From NCBI GenBank assembly GCA_965649765.1, contig OZ287749.1, forward strand, positions 88,226,001-88,290,000: a stretch of DNA of 64,000 bases, given 5' to 3'. A program made the position numbers and the translations under genes. The notes under the pieces are model-generated. The model was not told where the DNA came from. It saw nothing but the letters and a program-made list of their open reading frames with translations, and ran no database searches. Positions 9,376 through 18,911 of the stretch are shown piece by piece (within the stretch, counting starts at the first letter, position 1; each line of letters begins with the position of its first letter). This DNA comes from Bispira polyomma. Taxonomy: Eukaryota.

Positions 9376-11585
9376 AAACCACAATAGCAGACAAAAACCA
9401 TAAGTTTGTTCTGAATGTTAGTAAATAATTCCTGGAAGCTAATTAACTTTGAATATCACTACCCCTGTAAAATTCAGAAGAGTGCAATGTGGAATCAGAT
9501 GGAAGTCAAAACTTTCTTGGTCTTTTCTGCATTTGGCCTCCTATCCTCATTAACCTTAGAAGGCTGAAAAACTTTTGTGAAGTCAATAAATGGGTCATTC
9601 CAAACCTTTTGATGTAACAGTATAAAGTGAATCAAATACAATGCTAAATCAATGGGTTATTTTTCTTCCTAGAAGTTTTGTATTAGGTCTCGCATAAATA
9701 ACTTGCTGTCCATTCAAGACTATGTAGGGTCATTTTTCTTCCGGGCATCCGTACTCCTGTCTCTCCATACCTCAAAAAATTACATTGGTTTCTTATTCAT
9801 TATAGATTTTTGTTTAAAATCCATGTCGCCACTTTCAAACCTGTTGTCTCTCGGGTTGTCTCTCAACAGACCTACCTTGCTACTCTTCTTTCTTTCAGTA
9901 AGCACAAGAGCGGAAAGAGACTGTTTACTCTGTTAAACTCGCCAAGAGGGCTTACTCTAGAGCTGTTTCTATCACTGCCCCATGTAATTTTGTAACAGTC
10001 TCCCAGTTGAGCTTTGATCACTAGAAACTCTTCCTGGGTTTAGGGGAAAACTTAAAAACCTATCTCTACAAACTCGCTTACCCCCCTTAGTTCCCTCTCT
10101 GTACACCCCCACATCATTACTTAGGACCTGGCTATTTTTTTTCGACTTCTCGATTGGTTAATTCATTTGGGTGTTGCACTTTAAAAGATGCCTTGCATCA
10201 ATAAAGCGCGTAAAGGGGTGGTTCCACATTCAAGTTCGATCGGCAAAATGTCCCCGACTTTAAAGTCTGGGTGGTCGGGAACCAAAATTGTGAAAAATTC
10301 CCTTTTTGGGCAGGAAAATGTAAATGTGTCCCGACCTTGCAGATCGAACTGATTGCGCCCCGTTTTGACAGGCCCGTGACCTCAATCGAACGTAAAGGCC
10401 GTATGGCTTTGAACTCTACTGACCCCCGACCTTCCCGACCTTGATAGGATCAAACTTATTGGCTATAGGATCTGACATATTGGCCTAGGATTGAACATAT
10501 TGACTATAGGATCTGACTTATCCCTCATCCCGACCAATAGGATCGAACTTTTTTAAAATGAAGTCGGGAGTGCTTTCTGACCCTATAAGTACCCTTTTTG
10601 AGCCCTAAAACTCAGGAATGTTTAAGTAATTAGGTCATTAATAATTGAGTAATTGAGTACAATGCCAGGAAGAAATGATGAAGATTTCTTAAGGAGCCTA
10701 GGGAAATTTTTATTTTTTTTTAAGATTGAAGTATGTTTCCTCACGTTTATATTACATGAGAAAGACAAGGCTCAGGCTCGGGCTCATGAAGAATTGAACC
10801 CAACACCACCACATACCCCTTAGGCTCCCCCGGAGAAGATTGGGCTTCCACGTGTCACCCATCCTCTGGGTCAAGCCCTGGATCAGGCAAAGAGAGGCCC
10901 AAGGATACTACACAAACCTAATGCCGGAGCTACAGGAGGGGAATGCAACCGCATATAGGAACATGTGAATTATAAGTGCCATGACGTGTTTTTATAAAGC
11001 AGAGGACTATCTTAATTTGTATGGAATATACTGTGTTTTGTCTTACATAAAGTACACATAGAGAAGGGTGAGATTTAATAGTCTAATTTTCGTGGTTTTC
11101 TTTGGATTCTGAGTTTTCTATAAATACTTTTATATTGGATTTTAAACAGCAATTGGAGGACGATATTAGAGGTAAAATTGGACTTTGTTTATAAACACTG
11201 CCTCCTTAATTGGTGTAACCATGTCAACAATGTACTGACTGAACCTTGTATTGGCAAGTGTATGGTGGTCAGAAAGGTGTTTTGATAGCAATTAGGATAC
11301 CAATCAGCTGACTACAACCCTCTGTAATAGTGTCAAAATCAACAACAATTAACATTAAATCTACAAATGATCAACAGGACAAGGACCTGTTTAGGTGTTT
11401 AATTAAGCTGCTATTTGTGTGTTTATATTGACTTAGTCTGTGAGGGGAATGTTCTGGAATAGTTCTCAAGTGATTAGACTTCCACTGGTGCAAATATAGA
11501 CCACTAAGACTGTGTGCAATTCTAATAAAGATAGTACCCCCAATAATTTTAATTTTGAAAAAAAAAAACAACATTCTTTGGGGGT

Positions 11586-12556
11586 ATGAACAAAAATACA
11601 AACAAACGCAAAAACAGACGATCAAATAGTTCTAGCCACACACCAAGTCCTGTCCAAAACAAGAAAACCAGAGAAGCAGACTACACCAACAAGTACAGTC
11701 CACTTAGTGATCTTGGCTCCCCTGATTCAGACAGTATAAATAAAGAAATGGAGGGGGATAAACAGACAAATGAACTACTTTCTAATGTTCTCTCCCAACT
11801 ACAAACTCTAACTACCTCAGTAAACAACCTTGCAATGGCCCAACCCAAAACCAAAAGACAGAGTTATCTGACGTTAAAAAAGACCTTGCGATGTACCTTG
11901 ATCAATCAAATCACATTATAATGTTACACAAAGATACAGAAAATCAGGTGAAAGCTCTTCAAGATACAGTAAAACTGCTCCCGAATGTCAAAGTAGGTGT
12001 TAACAGTCCAGATCATACTGTAGTGATAAGTGGATTACCAGAGTCTTATCCTGAGGACCTACACATGAAGGTGTCCGAGTTACTTGGTTTCATGAACAAA
12101 GACAGTCGCACTATTACAGAAGTGTTTAGACTCAGAAGCAGAGCACAGGGTAAACCAGGCTTAGTTAAAGCAAGCTTTGCAACTGTAGCAGCCAAGATTG
12201 ATGTTCTGAGAGGCAAACAGTGCTTGAGAGGCTCCAGATATGGAGGGGTTTACATGAGAACTAGCAAATCCCACAGTGAAAGACTAAATGAAATAAATAC
12301 TAAAATCATGCTTGAAAATTGCCCATGGGGCAAGGACTACAGAGTAGCAGCAAATGGACGTGTAGTGCGTAAAGACACCACAAACTTTAATATTCAACAT
12401 GCAACAGCTCCTGCACAAGCCTACACAAGCCCTTTAGATATGTCACAATATCCACCTCTGACTCATGCCGGCCAACAACAGGGACACCCACAGAATCTTC
12501 GACAGTCGCCAAATCTACACGGCTCTTACAGGGATGCTATTAACCAAAATGCATAG
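11586..12556 (+). CDS. LINE ORF1 (basic N-terminus, coiled coil, RRM-like region); one frameshift near 11845
   Basis: ORFs 11586-11921 and 11891-12556 join into one protein; VVISGLPES, VFRL, GKPGLVK and VYMR motifs are typical of LINE ORF1. Confidence 0.8.
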
Positions 12557-15500
12557 GACTTTGACAGCCAACCCAGTTTCAAAGTCTTACACCATAATGT
12601 AAATGGGTGGCGAGGTCAGCACCTTGACGTGAAAGAAGCACTCATCAGTTGTTTTAAAGCTGACATCATCTGTCTCACAGAAACTCACCTAGAAGGGGAC
12701 TTAAAAGTGGACCTTGATGGTTATACGTTTTATCTGAACAATAGACAAATTAGACATGTGGATGCTGTAAAGGCTTCTGGTGGTGTAGCTATTGGGATTA
12801 AAAATAACTTACTTTCTGACTATAATGTCTTATTAGCTGAAAACTGTTATGATGGTATCCTTGCATTAGTACTGGAACACAGGTATACTAAGTTATCTTT
12901 GTTAATAATGTGTGCCTATATATCTCCTGATCACTCAAGCTGGGGTAAAGACTCAATTACTTTTTTCAGTCATTTACTAAGTATCATCTATGAATATATT
13001 GATGTAGATTGTACTATTTTGTGTGGTGACATGAACGCCCGTATTGGAGATATTAGTGACTGGGTGTCAGGTGTAGACAATGTAACAAAAAGAGAAAATA
13101 TAGACAAGATTCGCAGTGGTCACTTTCAAGAATTTATTGACTTCCTGATAGAAAGTAAACTTTGCATAGCGAACGGAAGAGTTACTCCTGAATTTAACAA
13201 CTTTACATCTATATCCAAAAAGGGTAGCTCTGTCATAGATTATTTTTGTATTCCACATGATGAAGTTAAAAATTGTTCTGTATTCAAAGTTCATTCTGTA
13301 ACAAATATACTTAACAAGTTAAATATAAAAACCGACAAAATACCAGACCACTCGATACTTGAACTGCAATATGTACCCCATATTGTTATAGATAAGCAAA
13401 CTAGTAAGCAAAATGTTACACCTCTAGACCTAAATTGTCAGGAATCAAAGCCCAAGTACAATACAAAAGATATACCTTGTAACTTTTTGAGTAGTGATAT
13501 GGCTAAAAGTGCTATGGGTGACCTAATATCATGTTTCTTAAATACAGAAATCACGCAATGCTCTGTTGATAAATTATATGAAAGTTTCGGCAATATTTAT
13601 TATGATGAAATGAAGGTTATGTTAAAAAAGATAAATATCAATAAGCAAGCTAACAAAAGGAGAAAGTTTAAACCAAAACCTTTCTGGAATTCAGAGTTAG
13701 AAACACTGTGGAAAGCTGTCTTAACTAGTGAAAATGAATACTTGAAATGTCCCCAATCGTCCAACCTAAGAAGGGTTAAACTGAACCTATATAAAACCTG
13801 TTGTAATCACTTTGATAAGTTTTACAAACGAGAAAAAAGAAAATACAACAGGCAAAAACAAGACTCAATTGAAACAGCCAACTACAAAAATCCCAGAGAT
13901 TTTTGGAAACATATAAAGTCACTAGGGCCACAACGCAAGTCAGATAGAATCCCGATGGAAGTATATGGGGTTGACGAAAATGGGGAAAAATACATTAGTA
14001 ATGATCCAGATTTAGTTTCTAAAATATGGGCTGATGAATTTGAAAACCTGTACAATAGTAATGAAGGTAGTGTCAAGTTAACAAAATTCAATAAAGGCAT
14101 TACAGATGAACTAAAAGTCCTTGAATCAAACTTGTCCTATAATACTGATAATGATTTAAGCAAGACTCTATCCCAAAGAGAAATTCAAAAAGCCTTAAGT
14201 AAAGTAAAAAACGGCAAGGCTACTGGTGTAGAAAATCTCCCTTATGAAGTGTTTAAAAATGAAAACTCAGTCCGATTGCTCACAGAACTCTTTCATTTAA
14301 TTTATAACTCTGGCGTTATTCCCTCAAACTGGAGATTAGCTATAATTAAACCATTACCAAAGAATTCAACAGAAGATCCCAGAATTCCCACCCAATATAG
14401 AGGAATTAGTCTGTTATCGACTGTCTATAAGCTATTCACCACTACTTTAAATAAAAGAATATCTGACTACCTTGAACAAAACGATGTCCTAGCAGATGAA
14501 CAAAACGGATTTAGACCAAATCGTAGCTGTGAAGACTATGTCTTTATACTCTTAAATATATTAAAAAACCGCAAAGCAAAAAATCAATCAACATATGTGG
14601 CCTTTATAGATGCTGAAAAAGCTTTTGATAAGGTAAATCGAACATTTATGCTTTATAAACTGCTCAAGGTGGGAATAAATGCAAAAACTTACAGGTTTAT
14701 CAAATGTATTTAATGAGTCCTGCCTATGTTGTATTAATATAAATGGTAGTTTAACAAAGACATTTTCCAGCAAACTAGGAGTACGCCAAGGTGATACTTT
14801 ATCTCCAACTCTTTTTAACATATTTATAAATGATATCGTTAATGAAATAAATAACCTAGGTCTGGGAATACCATTAGACAATAACAAAAGTATCTCAGTG
14901 CTTCTCTACACAGATGATATTGCAATTCTAGCAGAGTCTGAAGGAGATTTACAAAAGATGCTCAACGTAATAGACCAATGGGGTAAAAAATGGCAAATAA
15001 GGTTTAATCGTAAAAAATCACAAGTAGTACATTTTAGAAAACAATCACAGAATCAAACAAAATTTAGTTTTAAATTTGGAAGTGATGCCCTTGATACAGT
15101 CTCAGAATACAAATACTTAGGGATGATTTTTAATGAATTTGTAGACATTGGCAAAATGGGTCTAGTTTTAGCAGATTCCAGAAATAGGGCTCTTGGTAGT
15201 ATTATTAATAAATTTAACTGTTTAAATGGATTAGGTTACAATAGTCATAAAAAAATATTTGACATGTGTGTTGCTCCAATTCTGGACTATGGCTCAGGAG
15301 CATGGGGATACAAAGATGTGCCTAAAATTGAATCCGTCCAAAACAAAGCAATGAGATTTTTTCTGGGGGCCCCAAAATTTACACCAACTGTAATTGGTGA
15401 TCTAGATTGGTTAACAAGTAAGTGTCGGAGAAAACTACAAATTTTAAAATTCTGGAATAAACTATGCAAGTTAGACACATCAAGACTATTGTATAACGTC

Positions 15501-16085
15501 TTCCAGTGGGATTTTAATTTTAAAAACAAGTTCTCCTGGAGTAATGAAGTTAAAAAAATATTTGAAAAGCTAAACCTTCAGTCCGCATTCAGAAACCATT
15601 TGCCTGTTGATATAAATTGGTGTACATCTCAAATAAGCTACACAGAAAAAGACTTATGGACAAATAATGTCAAAAATAGTCCTAAACTAAGGACATATTG
15701 TACATATAAAGAAACGGCAAAATTGGAACCTTATGTTTATAGAATCAAAAACAGAAAACATAGGGCAATAGTATCTAAATTTAGAAGTGGAGTACTACCT
15801 CTACAAATTGAAATTGGCCGTTGGAATCAAGTTCAACTTGAACAAAGAATATGCAAACTCTGCAATGAACATATAGAGGACGAAATTCACTTCTCTTTAA
15901 ACTGTGTAGCTTTTTATGATGAGCGGAGTAAATTCATAAACTATGTTAAAAGTAAATACCCTGATTTTGATGTTTTAAGTTACCCAGAAAAGTTAAAATT
16001 GCTGATGCAAAAAGAAAATATAACCCATTTTTGTAATTATTTGGTAACTATATGTGATAAACGTAAATCTCTAATATTTAATTAG
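12557..16085 (+). CDS. LINE ORF2, endonuclease (APE) plus reverse transcriptase; frameshift near 14710
   Basis: HNVNGW, DIICLTETHL, GGVAI, CGDMNAR, VIDY, PDHS (APE); YRGISLLS, QNGFR, FIDAEKAFD, GVRQGDTLSPTLF, LLYTDD, YKYLG (RT). Confidence 0.93.
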
Positions 16086-16604
16086 CCTTGGACTACTGTT
16101 TATATGATATACCTATGTACCACATGTTTTATACTTTATGTAATATTTGTATATATTAATATGTGTAACTACTGTATATAGTATATATATTATTTATATC
16201 TCGTGACAGTAATTGTACTATACATAAAAAAGTGCCTCATAAGCCCATGTATGCTGGGCTGGCTGCCATAATTATGACCTGTTAAAAATGTATATTTATA
16301 TTGGAGTGCAGGTGGCACTAAAATAAAAAATTTATCTCTCTCTATAGGAATTTTTCAGGCTGCCACCTAATATATTTGAGGAAATCAAGGCGAGGATAAC
16401 ACCCCATGTGAAAAGATCAACAACTTGGTATAGAAAGCCCTTGGATGTTGGACTGAAACTGGCTGTAACTTTGAGGCACCTGGCCACTGGGGAGAGCTAC
16501 AGGTCCCTGTCATACCAGTTTAGGGTGGGGAAATCATCTATCACCAAGTTTATACCAGACGTGTTCAAGGTCATCATCAAGGAGTACGAGGGTGAAAATC
16601 TAGC

Positions 16605-16898
16605 CAGGGGTGTAGCTACCATTAACGCCAGTACGCCCAGGCGTACCAGTTTAATGACAAGAAAGAACAAAAAATTTGAAAATTTTTTATTCTGTTTGTT
16701 GTAGTAGTAACATAGATTTCTGTTGTAAAATTTAAAAAAATTGGTACTCCCCAAGTGAACCAAAATATTATGTTTATTATGTTGATGCCCCCCCGCCCCC
16801 CACACACACGAATTGAATTTTGGCAGGACAAAAAAGCTAATATATTGGTTTAATTTTAATTTGGGAGTACCAGATGAAAAATCCTGGCTACTCCCCTG
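16605..16898. mobile_element. 294-bp hAT-like MITE inserted in the Harbinger transposase
   Basis: TIR caggggtgtagc / gctactcccctg (11/12 match); CTAGC duplicated at 16600-16604 and 16899-16903; transposase homology resumes immediately after. Confidence 0.85.
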
Positions 16899-18911
16899 CT
16901 AGCCTGCCAACCACCCCCGCTGAGTGGCTAAAACTGGAGGAAGTTTATAGAACCAGATGGAATGTCCCTCATGCTGTTGGCTCTATTGACGAAAAGCACA
17001 TGGCCGTCAAGAAGCCTCCCAAGGCTGGAAGTGAATTTTACAACTATAAAGGCTTTCACTCCATTGTCCTGTTTGCCCTGGTTGATTTTTAACCACTCAG
17101 AGCTCAAGCAGAAGATAGAAGATGGATCCATTGGGCTGCCCAGACCTGCACCACTGTTTGAAGGATCCAGACGTGACATGGATTACTTCCTGCTGGGGGA
17201 CGACGCCTTTGCCCTGAAAACGTGGATGATGAAACCCTACTCAAGGAGGGCACTTACCCATCACCAGAGAATTTTTAACCACAGGATATCCAGGGAAAGG
17301 CGGGTGGTGAAGAATGCTTTTGGGATTTTGGCCAGCCTGTTCTGCGTATTAGTAACGACGATGCAATAACACCCCCTAGTGGCCTCAAATCTGACATTGA
17401 CATGTGTGATATTACATAATCTACTGAGAAGCCGGTGTGGAAACCCAGCACTAGAGCACCCCAACCCACAAGATGATCCACCTGAACCCGAGGAGAAGTT
17501 GGTAGGAGATCAAGCGGCCAACAACAGAAACCCATCCAAAGCAGCAAAAGAACAGAGGGGCGTGTTAATGGACTATTTTATGAATAAGGGGGTAGTCCTG
17601 TGGCAAAATGATAGAGTTTAACCTGAGCCTGAGCCGAACCACCAGAGCCAGATGAGAAGCCAACCAAGAGATGTTGCAGTAGTGGAAAATTTAAAAGGTC
17701 CTTTTCAGGACCACCCAAATATTTCAAGAACAATGTTTGAGCTGTTTGTTACACCCCCATCCCCTTACCAATCACAATCACTAAATGTTAAACCCAGCAC
17801 CCCTACATGTAACACTGTGTGATCCTACATACATACACGATAACTTGCAACAAAAAAACCCATTGAAATTGTCAAACCCCTACACACACAAAGAGATAAA
17901 GTAAACCCCTTACTGTAAAATAATTGAACCCAAGGTCTTGCAATGACATTATAACTGTGTGCTGCGGGCCCCCATAACATATATACTGAAGATACCCCAA
18001 CAACATATAGTACACGGGCCGTTTTGTGCGCTAGGTCATATGTTATGACTTTTTCATTTGGGCTACCACTTGCTTGGTGACAAAACTGGGTTCGAACCCT
18101 AAAAAGTGGTGTGACCACTTATTTGGAAGATTATAATCTCAGGATGTTGTTTATTTTGTCTACAAAAAAAATCTTTGCATTGCATCACTGCAAAAATGTA
18201 TCTTTAACAAACGTTTCTCAATTGCTTTTCTCCAAAATTATTTCAGAATGATTTATTTCCCCAATTATTTAACAAAGACAATGCATGTAAGCATCGAGAG
18301 TATGTATTTCAATTTGGTACTTAATGGGGTATGTTGCACAGAATTTCTATTGTTTTTTTTAAACAATTTATTAGCATTATTGTCTGTCATTATTTCTCAG
18401 AAACATTTACTATGGTGATATGGAGTTCATATCTCAAGTTTGTACGTATTGGGACAGATTTGACAGACTTTGTTATTTTTTTTTTAAGTAATATCTCATC
18501 TTTCGTATCCATCTTTTTGTCATTTAACCAAAGCATTTGCAATGGAGATAAGGCTTTTCATTCTTAATCAGGTACTTGGGCAATTTTGGAAGGTTTTGAT
18601 TTTTTTTTCCTATTCTCAGTTAATATAACTACTATTCTCAGTTACATAACTCAAAATTTACCAAAGAGGGACATCTTTTACTTTACAAGTTGGACAATCA
18701 CAAACACTTATTGGAAGGGGGGAGGGTTATAATTAAGTTTTGTTTGTTTATGTGTGTTATTTGTTTTGCGTGGCTGAAATAATCTGTTTGTTTGGGCTAA
18801 TGTTTGGGGTTTTTGTTTGGACAATGATAATTATATTTCTGTCTGTGTGGCCAGGGGGTGGGGGGGGGGGGGGCTCAAAACACACACCCCCCCTTGGAGA
18901 TTGCTGACTGG

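Follow-up and report, generated by a model that had tools for sequence, protein, structure and literature searches.

How does a retrotransposon make its enzyme when the reading frame that encodes it has no start codon? This question was raised by a long interspersed nuclear element (LINE) lying in a 64,000-nt stretch of the Bispira polyomma genome, which we call the window (GenBank assembly GCA_965649765.1, contig OZ287749.1, forward strand, 88,226,001 to 88,290,000; positions below count from its first letter). The second open reading frame (ORF2) of this element follows ORF1 in the same frame across a single TAG and lacks a start codon, as an original prediction made from the letters alone had claimed. 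We found that the in-frame stop at this junction is neither due to chance nor specific to one copy, being clade-wide, that it is followed by a motif constrained at synonymous sites, and that this motif shows covarying complementarity to a structure in the 3' untranslated region (UTR). Considering these comparative data together, we lean towards a model in which the ORF2 enzyme would be made as an ORF1-ORF2 fusion, by readthrough of the stop stimulated by a pairing over ~3.7 kb. The features on which the argument turns are these:

11586..12556, + strand: ORF1, with a basic N-terminus, coiled coil, RNA-recognition motif (RRM), C-terminal domain (CTD) and disordered tail up to the TAG (alignment, AlphaFold, Foldseek)
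12554..12556, + strand: in-frame UAG between ORF1 and ORF2, putative readthrough codon, context UAG-GAC
12557..16085, + strand: ORF2 without AUG, comprising an apurinic endonuclease-like (APE) domain (N14 at 12596), reverse transcriptase (RT) and C-terminal domain (Pfam, PDB L1 endonuclease)
12563..12577, + strand: proximal pairing arm GACAGCCAACCCAGT, bearing the clade motif CCCAGCC, ~8 nt past the stop (motif, synonymous constraint, predicted pairing)
16231..16319, + strand: conserved 3' UTR structure, an outer stem (16231-16236/16314-16319) around an AGCCC/GGGCU hairpin (RNAalifold, 20 families)
16253..16266, + strand: distal pairing arm GCTGGGCTGGCTGC, formed by the inner-hairpin loop and 3' strand, predicted partner of 12563-12577

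ORF1 terminates with ...NQNA at the TAG, and the same frame runs on as DFDSQPSFKVLHHNVNGW...CLTETHL, through the HNVNGW motif of the endonuclease. The alignment of the endonuclease profile with the human L1 endonuclease begins at L1 residue 5, so that the peptide after the stop corresponds to the natural N-terminus of this domain. Downstream there are two candidate starts. The GTG at 12629 is ORF2 residue 25 and the ATG at 12908, the first of the frame, is residue 118; either would leave out N14 (12596-12598), the aligned equivalent of N14 in the human enzyme, and the ATG would also leave out E42, the counterpart of L1 E43. Both come too late. In this family not even a near-cognate start is present between the stop and the first endonuclease strand. 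We also looked at the other copies of the family, in which 25 alignment rows, corresponding to 24 distinct copies (L022 and L029 are one copy), cover the site: TAG was found in 23 of the 24, the remaining copy is deleted across the site, and none carries a sense codon, which rules out a copy-specific nonsense mutation. Neither a sense codon at this site nor an in-frame ATG before HNVNGW was found. Reassignment of TAG was also ruled out, since ORFs of ~340 and ~1190 codons contain no internal TAG and ORF2 itself ends with TAG in 4 of 17 elements.

We asked how far this arrangement extends beyond the window family. A protein search of the genome, with 76 extracted stretches, yielded 16 families, of which 14 have a TAG and one a TAA in frame just before the endonuclease, while the last has ORF2 in the +1 frame; homologous ORF1s, where intact, are open up to the junction stop. 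A metagenome scan added 80 loci from other assemblies. In 61 of them a stop lies in frame no more than 31 codons from the first endonuclease motif, and in 39 of those 61 (hand count) an ORF1-profile match is open to that stop. Each cluster whose junction could be recognised was represented by a single locus, which gave 64 junctions, 16 of them own and 48 from outside; apart from the -1 pair, the exception loci described below (14) are left out of the motif counts. The families are related at a median APE identity of 41% (quick tree, 46 rows). Results showed that the junction stops are TAG in 54 representatives, TAA in 5 and TGA in 5, with G at position +4 in 57 and TAG-G in 51, and that the following codon is GAC in 26, GAT in 9, GGA in 5 and GGG in 3. 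The terminal ORF2 stops of 17 elements are TAA (10), TAG (4) and TGA (3), and none of them is TAG-G. At the level of the clade the context is that of type III readthrough (UAGGGV, UAGGUA, UAGGAU), the UAGGAC of the window being a near variant rather than a listed hexamer. The spacers from stop to endonuclease span 12-31 codons with the frame kept. An AUG at or after the ORF1 stop in the ORF2 frame, in the style of SART1 and L1, is not the pattern here, as an ATG precedes the endonuclease in only 2 of 64 spacers and in none of the other 62; even a near-cognate start before the first strand is missing in 18 of the 64. A TGA subgroup (L143, L151, L164, L181, L191) has mostly TGA-G, with the motif 11 nt past the stop, and three of its members cluster in the quick tree.

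The junction carries a second conserved feature. The sequence CCCAGCC, with at most 1 mismatch, occurs 5-11 nt past the stop (mode 8) in 46 of the 64 junctions, against a background of 0.1% in 1616 ORF2 windows and 2.1% in 864 ORF1-tail windows. It was discovered on the 16 own families (12/16 with at most 1 mismatch) and then sought outside, where it recurs in 34 of 48 clusters. The motif occupies all three reading frames (38, 5 and 3 junctions), its four-fold degenerate codons have a third-base C in 30 of 31 cases against 15% elsewhere in ORF2, and its Gln codon is CAG in 34 of 44 against 37% elsewhere. Because all three frames are used and synonymous sites are constrained, comparative evidence identifies the motif as an RNA signal. 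We also tried a local hairpin of CCAGCC with the GGN-TGG codons of NVNGW, which can fold in 38/64 junctions; it was rejected, having no extra stability or covariation (variable pair 0.51 versus 0.49 shuffled; swap p=0.35). Nor does folding downstream of the stop support any local structure (z<-2 in 4/64, mean z -0.2, in a model that leaves pseudoknots outside). The gammaretroviral analogy drawn by the original prediction is thus borne out for the context, with its type III stop and ~8-nt spacer, and fails for local structure, the partner being long-range, in the 3' UTR. In more distant LINEs with an HNVQG motif (L247 at ~2150 and ~5490, G000 C8:11.67 Mb; L248; L249), the endonuclease is again directly preceded by a TAG; they carry a different post-stop motif, GGCCAGGG, for which the 3' UTR offers the best partner, immediately upstream of the tail, in one of three loci.

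The 3' UTRs of the clade share a structure upstream of AATAAA, an outer stem with the inner AGCCC/GGGCU hairpin, in which 12 of 15 pairs show compensatory change (RNAalifold, 20 families). The junction motif is complementary to part of the inner hairpin, namely its loop and 3' strand; the distance from this distal arm to AATAAA is mostly 26-80 nt, and in one family 11 nt to the first AATAAA. Both ends were available for 20 families, 19 of them located by pattern and 1 by eye, and 2 more were held out. When the junction 21-mer was compared with ~900 downstream windows, the 3' UTR element came out as the best partner for 17 of the 20 families as well as for the 2 held out, while it was so for only 3 of 60 random 21-mers; in the window family the distal arm ranks first among 930 windows, at -22.6 kcal/mol. 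True pairs are more stable than pairs swapped between families (-21.6 versus -17.1 kcal/mol, p<1e-5, 22 families), also after removal of sister families (17 left, p<=2e-5), in the 13 families with unchanged core (p=0.004) and for the Watson-Crick pairs flanking the core (p=0.0005), although all these p-values overstate independence, the families being related and a quick tree alone being available. The true-over-swapped effect is absent from the windows on either side of the arm. Compensatory examples include C-G to U-A in two families and G-C to A-U in one, and in the window family the core is duplicated on both sides of the predicted duplex. With the first stop base as +1, the predicted duplex spans +11 to +18 in 17-20 of the 20 families, and 9-12 of the 20 predictions have an extended form that takes in the bases of the stop. 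As the distal arm overlaps the inner hairpin, the two energies can be compared: -4.8 to -10 kcal/mol for the hairpin and -14.7 to -26.9 kcal/mol for the duplex. Taken together, the covariation and specificity of these matches make the long-range pairing very probably real.

Two lineages in which the frame is not kept provided further insight. In the own-genome +1 family (L088, L089 and five more copies, at G000 C4:2.55 Mb and C1:99.7 Mb among others), ORF1 has 360 codons and ends TTT-TAA-C with ORF2 in +1 in 7/7 copies; the family retains the junction motif and the 3' UTR partner and is placed, with moderate support in the quick tree, among TAG families. In L200 and L201, which are 84% identical, ORF2 is in -1 behind TAT-TTT-TAR (TAG or TAA; L200:1255-1320, L201:2505-2570), the ORF1 tail is rich in Gly/Asn/Pro repeats and the contigs stop short of the 3' ends. 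Both shifted lineages have TTT immediately ahead of the stop, a codon seen there in 0 of the 62 representatives with ORF2 in frame. Such a confinement of TTT to shifted lineages points to continued elongation, in which a P-site tRNA-Phe would slip at a slow stop, and reinitiation gives no account of it.

Several results weigh against this interpretation. The pairing was scored by duplex energies and not by whole-RNA folding. In three of 20 families (mg1, mg16, mg29) the best partner lies elsewhere, the reverse scan puts the junction first in only 13/20, one cross-pairing beats the true pairing in 2 of 5 sister pairs, and a family's own partner ranks first among the 20 UTRs in only 4, which can be explained by a core common to the families. 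Locus L148 has the UTR hairpin and yet no stop in the 101 codons up to the contig start, suggesting that the hairpin has another primary role. The metagenome scan used a pattern that demanded NGW[TR], and ~21/59 database homologs, by a permissive pattern that also picked up some false matches, are annotated as starting at a Met (ATG or GTG/TTG) ahead of N14. Moreover, 16 of the 80 outside loci deviate from the in-frame-stop pattern and another 3 stay open as far as the start of the contig. Among the 16, L199, L202 and L211 have a sense Tyr codon (TAC or TAT) at the stop site and are possibly fused single-ORF derivatives or copy mutations; L178 and L214 may use a start of their own; L166, L188 and L192 have long spacers; two are the -1 pair L200/L201; and six could not be assigned or are rearranged. 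A separate observation is that L178, L214, L166, L148 and L188 may have regained a start or bear a long N-terminal extension, which makes them natural controls for loss of the pairing.

Recoding of some kind at the junction stop is, on this comparative evidence, quite probable, and we considered what else could explain the data. One explanation is that readthrough proceeds from the local UAG-G context alone and that the pairing serves something else, most likely a fold-back of the poly(A) end that protects against nonsense-mediated decay (NMD), or assembly of the ribonucleoprotein. The position of the distal arm close before AATAAA would suit the fold-back, and the hairpin of L148, which has no visible junction, would suit a role apart from readthrough. 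Poly(A)-binding protein near a stop promotes termination, which counts against the fold-back; a fold-back would presumably need no fixed offset either, yet the proximal arm keeps a narrow one of 5-11 nt (mode 8), as expected for a structure at the ribosome entry channel. A poly(A) tail folded near the stop indeed suppresses NMD (PMC2689704), while UAG-G by itself is weak without downstream structure (PMC13517186), and on balance we find this explanation unlikely. AUG-independent termination-reinitiation, or release and in-frame restart, perhaps with factors brought by the paired 3' end, seems a little less likely again. It has precedent, in that reviews regard initiation at L1 ORF2 as unconventional and not dependent on its AUG, and that SART1 coupling needs downstream structure (PMC5009743, PMC5972666), and L178 and L214 might illustrate it. 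Such a mechanism would not hold frame 0 over spacers of such variable length, it would have to operate in the junctions that lack even a near-cognate codon, and the TTT-only shifted lineages imply a slipping peptidyl-tRNA. The original prediction had offered fusion by readthrough or non-AUG reinitiation; the comparative evidence favours the former, which we infer, over the latter.

The two other explanations we regard as very improbable. If there were no recoding, ORF2 would begin at the downstream GTG or ATG and the conserved region would reflect mere protein constraint. The motif does usually encode x-Q-P, and gene callers place the start of many homologs downstream, but the endonuclease would lose N14 (and E42 with the ATG), and constraint acts on synonymous sites of a motif found in three frames. 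Equally improbable is removal of the stop from the RNA, either by A-to-I editing (UAG to UIG) within the duplex or by splicing at a TAG|G acceptor. UAG is a preferred triplet of ADAR, the extended duplex would cover the stop bases in part of the predictions as mentioned, and TAG|G does resemble an acceptor. Edited or spliced RNA would, however, be reverse-transcribed into new copies, and TGG is found at the site in 0 of 77 loci, on which count editing was rejected; for splicing there is no pyrimidine tract (41% versus 44% background) and no joint ending at 12557 in three read runs, which resemble genomic contigs and are silent on expression, so that the acceptor too was rejected. TAA, TGA and frameshifted variants are moreover unsuited to either route.

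Returning to readthrough stimulated by the long-range pairing, the following mechanism can be proposed. In vivo, the duplex at +11 to +18 would sit at the ribosomal mRNA entry channel and slow termination, allowing a near-cognate tRNA to decode the UAG in a few percent of events; where a UUU within a U-run precedes the stop, tRNA-Phe would instead slip +1 or -1. Most ribosomes would terminate and provide the excess of ORF1p that a LINE needs, the minor product being an ORF1-ORF2 fusion linked through the disordered tail of ORF1. Such fusions do occur as sequences, given that the database protein P0039 has, by eye, an ORF1-like region in frame with ORF2. Because the 3' UTR hairpin and the distal arm share bases, the two folds would be mutually exclusive. 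This hairpin is probably, as in other LINEs, the recognition site of the RT. The exclusive folds would tie ORF2 synthesis to full-length RNA and let the RNA toggle between translation and copying, as in tombusviruses. A clade-wide, virus-like switch of this kind, in which the opened hairpin pairs at the stop, 3.7 kb towards the 5' end, holding up termination and causing readthrough or a slip by +1 or -1, with translation and retrotransposition exclusive, is a proposal whose chances we judge to be evenly balanced.

The closest known parallel is the tombusvirus carnation Italian ringspot virus (CIRV), in which a ~3.5-kb pairing of proximal and distal readthrough elements (PRTE-DRTE) drives p33/p95 readthrough, with a switch (PMC3234231). 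In both systems a UAG-G stop separates an accessory protein from a polymerase and the pairing is with a 3'-terminal structure, the CIRV distal arm takes part in exclusive folds as the arm overlapping the inner hairpin may do here, and the culling of truncated RNAs and cis preference proposed for the virus may likewise apply to the LINE clade. CIRV is, in contrast, an RNA virus whose mechanism was demonstrated experimentally, while the LINE case is computational; the proximal element of the virus forms a bulge within a large local stem-loop, whereas no local stem is supported for the LINE arm. Moloney murine leukaemia virus gag-pol shares the UAG-G type III context, the 8-nt spacer, a structure near +12 (a pseudoknot from +12) and the fusion of a structural protein to an RT (PMC13517186), but its pseudoknot is local and it is a long terminal repeat (LTR) virus, unlike this non-LTR element with a partner 3.7 kb away. 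For the non-LTR retrotransposons of Paramecium, a separate ciliate clade, consensus sequences suggested readthrough of the ORF1 stop in Group 3 and +1 frameshifting or reinitiation in Groups 1 and 2, from frame alone, and the main-text passages describe no signal, structure or long-range pairing (PMC5405496). L1 and SART1 are likewise bicistronic, and the ORF1p fold here is like that of L1, while their ORF2 has an AUG and uses termination-reinitiation, in contrast to this clade with no AUG and no stop in the spacer (PMC5972666, PMC5009743). In the literature searched, which lay outside Repbase, Dfam and subscription papers and took in a curated bivalve LINE library in part, we found no long-range pairing in any LINE and nothing on RTE-X ORF2 translation, and only the Paramecium study proposes LINE readthrough; what appears to be new is the long-range pairing at a LINE stop.

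The element itself bears the hallmarks of an APE-type non-LTR retrotransposon: no LTRs, an 8-bp target-site duplication, a (TC)n tail and dispersed copies. It is full length, ~10962 to 16342, bounded by the 8-bp duplications:

10954..10961, + strand: 5' target-site duplication TATAGGAA; homology to family copies begins at 10961
10962..11585, + strand: LINE 5' UTR, common to family copies, with the ORF1 ATG at 11586
16322..16342, + strand: AATAAA and (TC)n microsatellite tail
16343..16350, + strand: 3' target-site duplication TATAGGAA, pairing with the 5' one

ORF2 matches Exo_endo_phos (PF03372) and RVT_1 (PF00078) in Pfam and, by profile, the L1 endonuclease in PDB (E 1e-11). An AlphaFold model of ORF1 from the sister copy L066 shows the coiled coil, RRM, CTD and disordered tail, and its top 7 Foldseek matches are human L1 ORF1p (best E 2.2e-5); three ORF1s of the clade gave no significant Pfam family. 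The RT motifs (YRGISL, EQNGFR, NRK, KAFD, QGD.LSP.LF) match RTEX-1_LG and not three Proto2 references in a comparison by eye (alignment in PMC10294476), and the element appears RTE-X-like, an assignment made by eye from RT motifs. With RTEX it shares APE and RT, a microsatellite tail and named homologs in Patella, Ruditapes and Mytilus. Its ORF1 is L1-like (coiled coil-RRM-CTD); some RTEX elements have an esterase ORF1. The window copy is dead, as ORF1 is frameshifted by the loss of ~61 nt at ~11843 and ORF2 has 1 extra base at 14712. The family has 35 matches genome-wide, their depth climbing toward the 3' side, and Rfam gave no match within 10900-16400. In the sister families L079 and L106, ORF1 (~340 codons), TAG and ORF2 (~1180-1196 codons) are all open in some copies, suggesting recent activity of these families. 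The LINE sits inside a degenerate DDE_Tnp_4 (Harbinger-type) transposase gene (10930-10961 and 16343-17369), whose frame reads ...EGNATAYR ahead of the insertion and ..FFRLPPNIF after it (PF13359 downstream, E 9e-9). The same genome also contains an unrelated single-ORF LINE (L241, L244; G000 C14:28.07 Mb and C3:87.58 Mb) with LLLLAGDVSLNPGP directly before the endonuclease, which we take to be a 2A-like motif of the StopGo strategy.

In conclusion, how LINE ORF2 is translated is a long-standing open question, studied chiefly in L1 and SART1, and this clade offers a short, conserved and directly testable case in which compensatory variants and two frameshift variants occur naturally. If the model is true, gene callers truncate the ORF2 proteins of the clade for a reason that it would explain, and long-range recoding control would extend from plant RNA viruses to animal retrotransposons, as the first kilobase-scale recoding interaction found, within the literature searched, for a nuclear-encoded, polyadenylated animal RNA. 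Only full-length RNA would then make the enzyme, an RNA would serve translation or retrotransposition but never both at a time, and the clade would have a mechanism for cis preference and for the culling of truncated RNAs.

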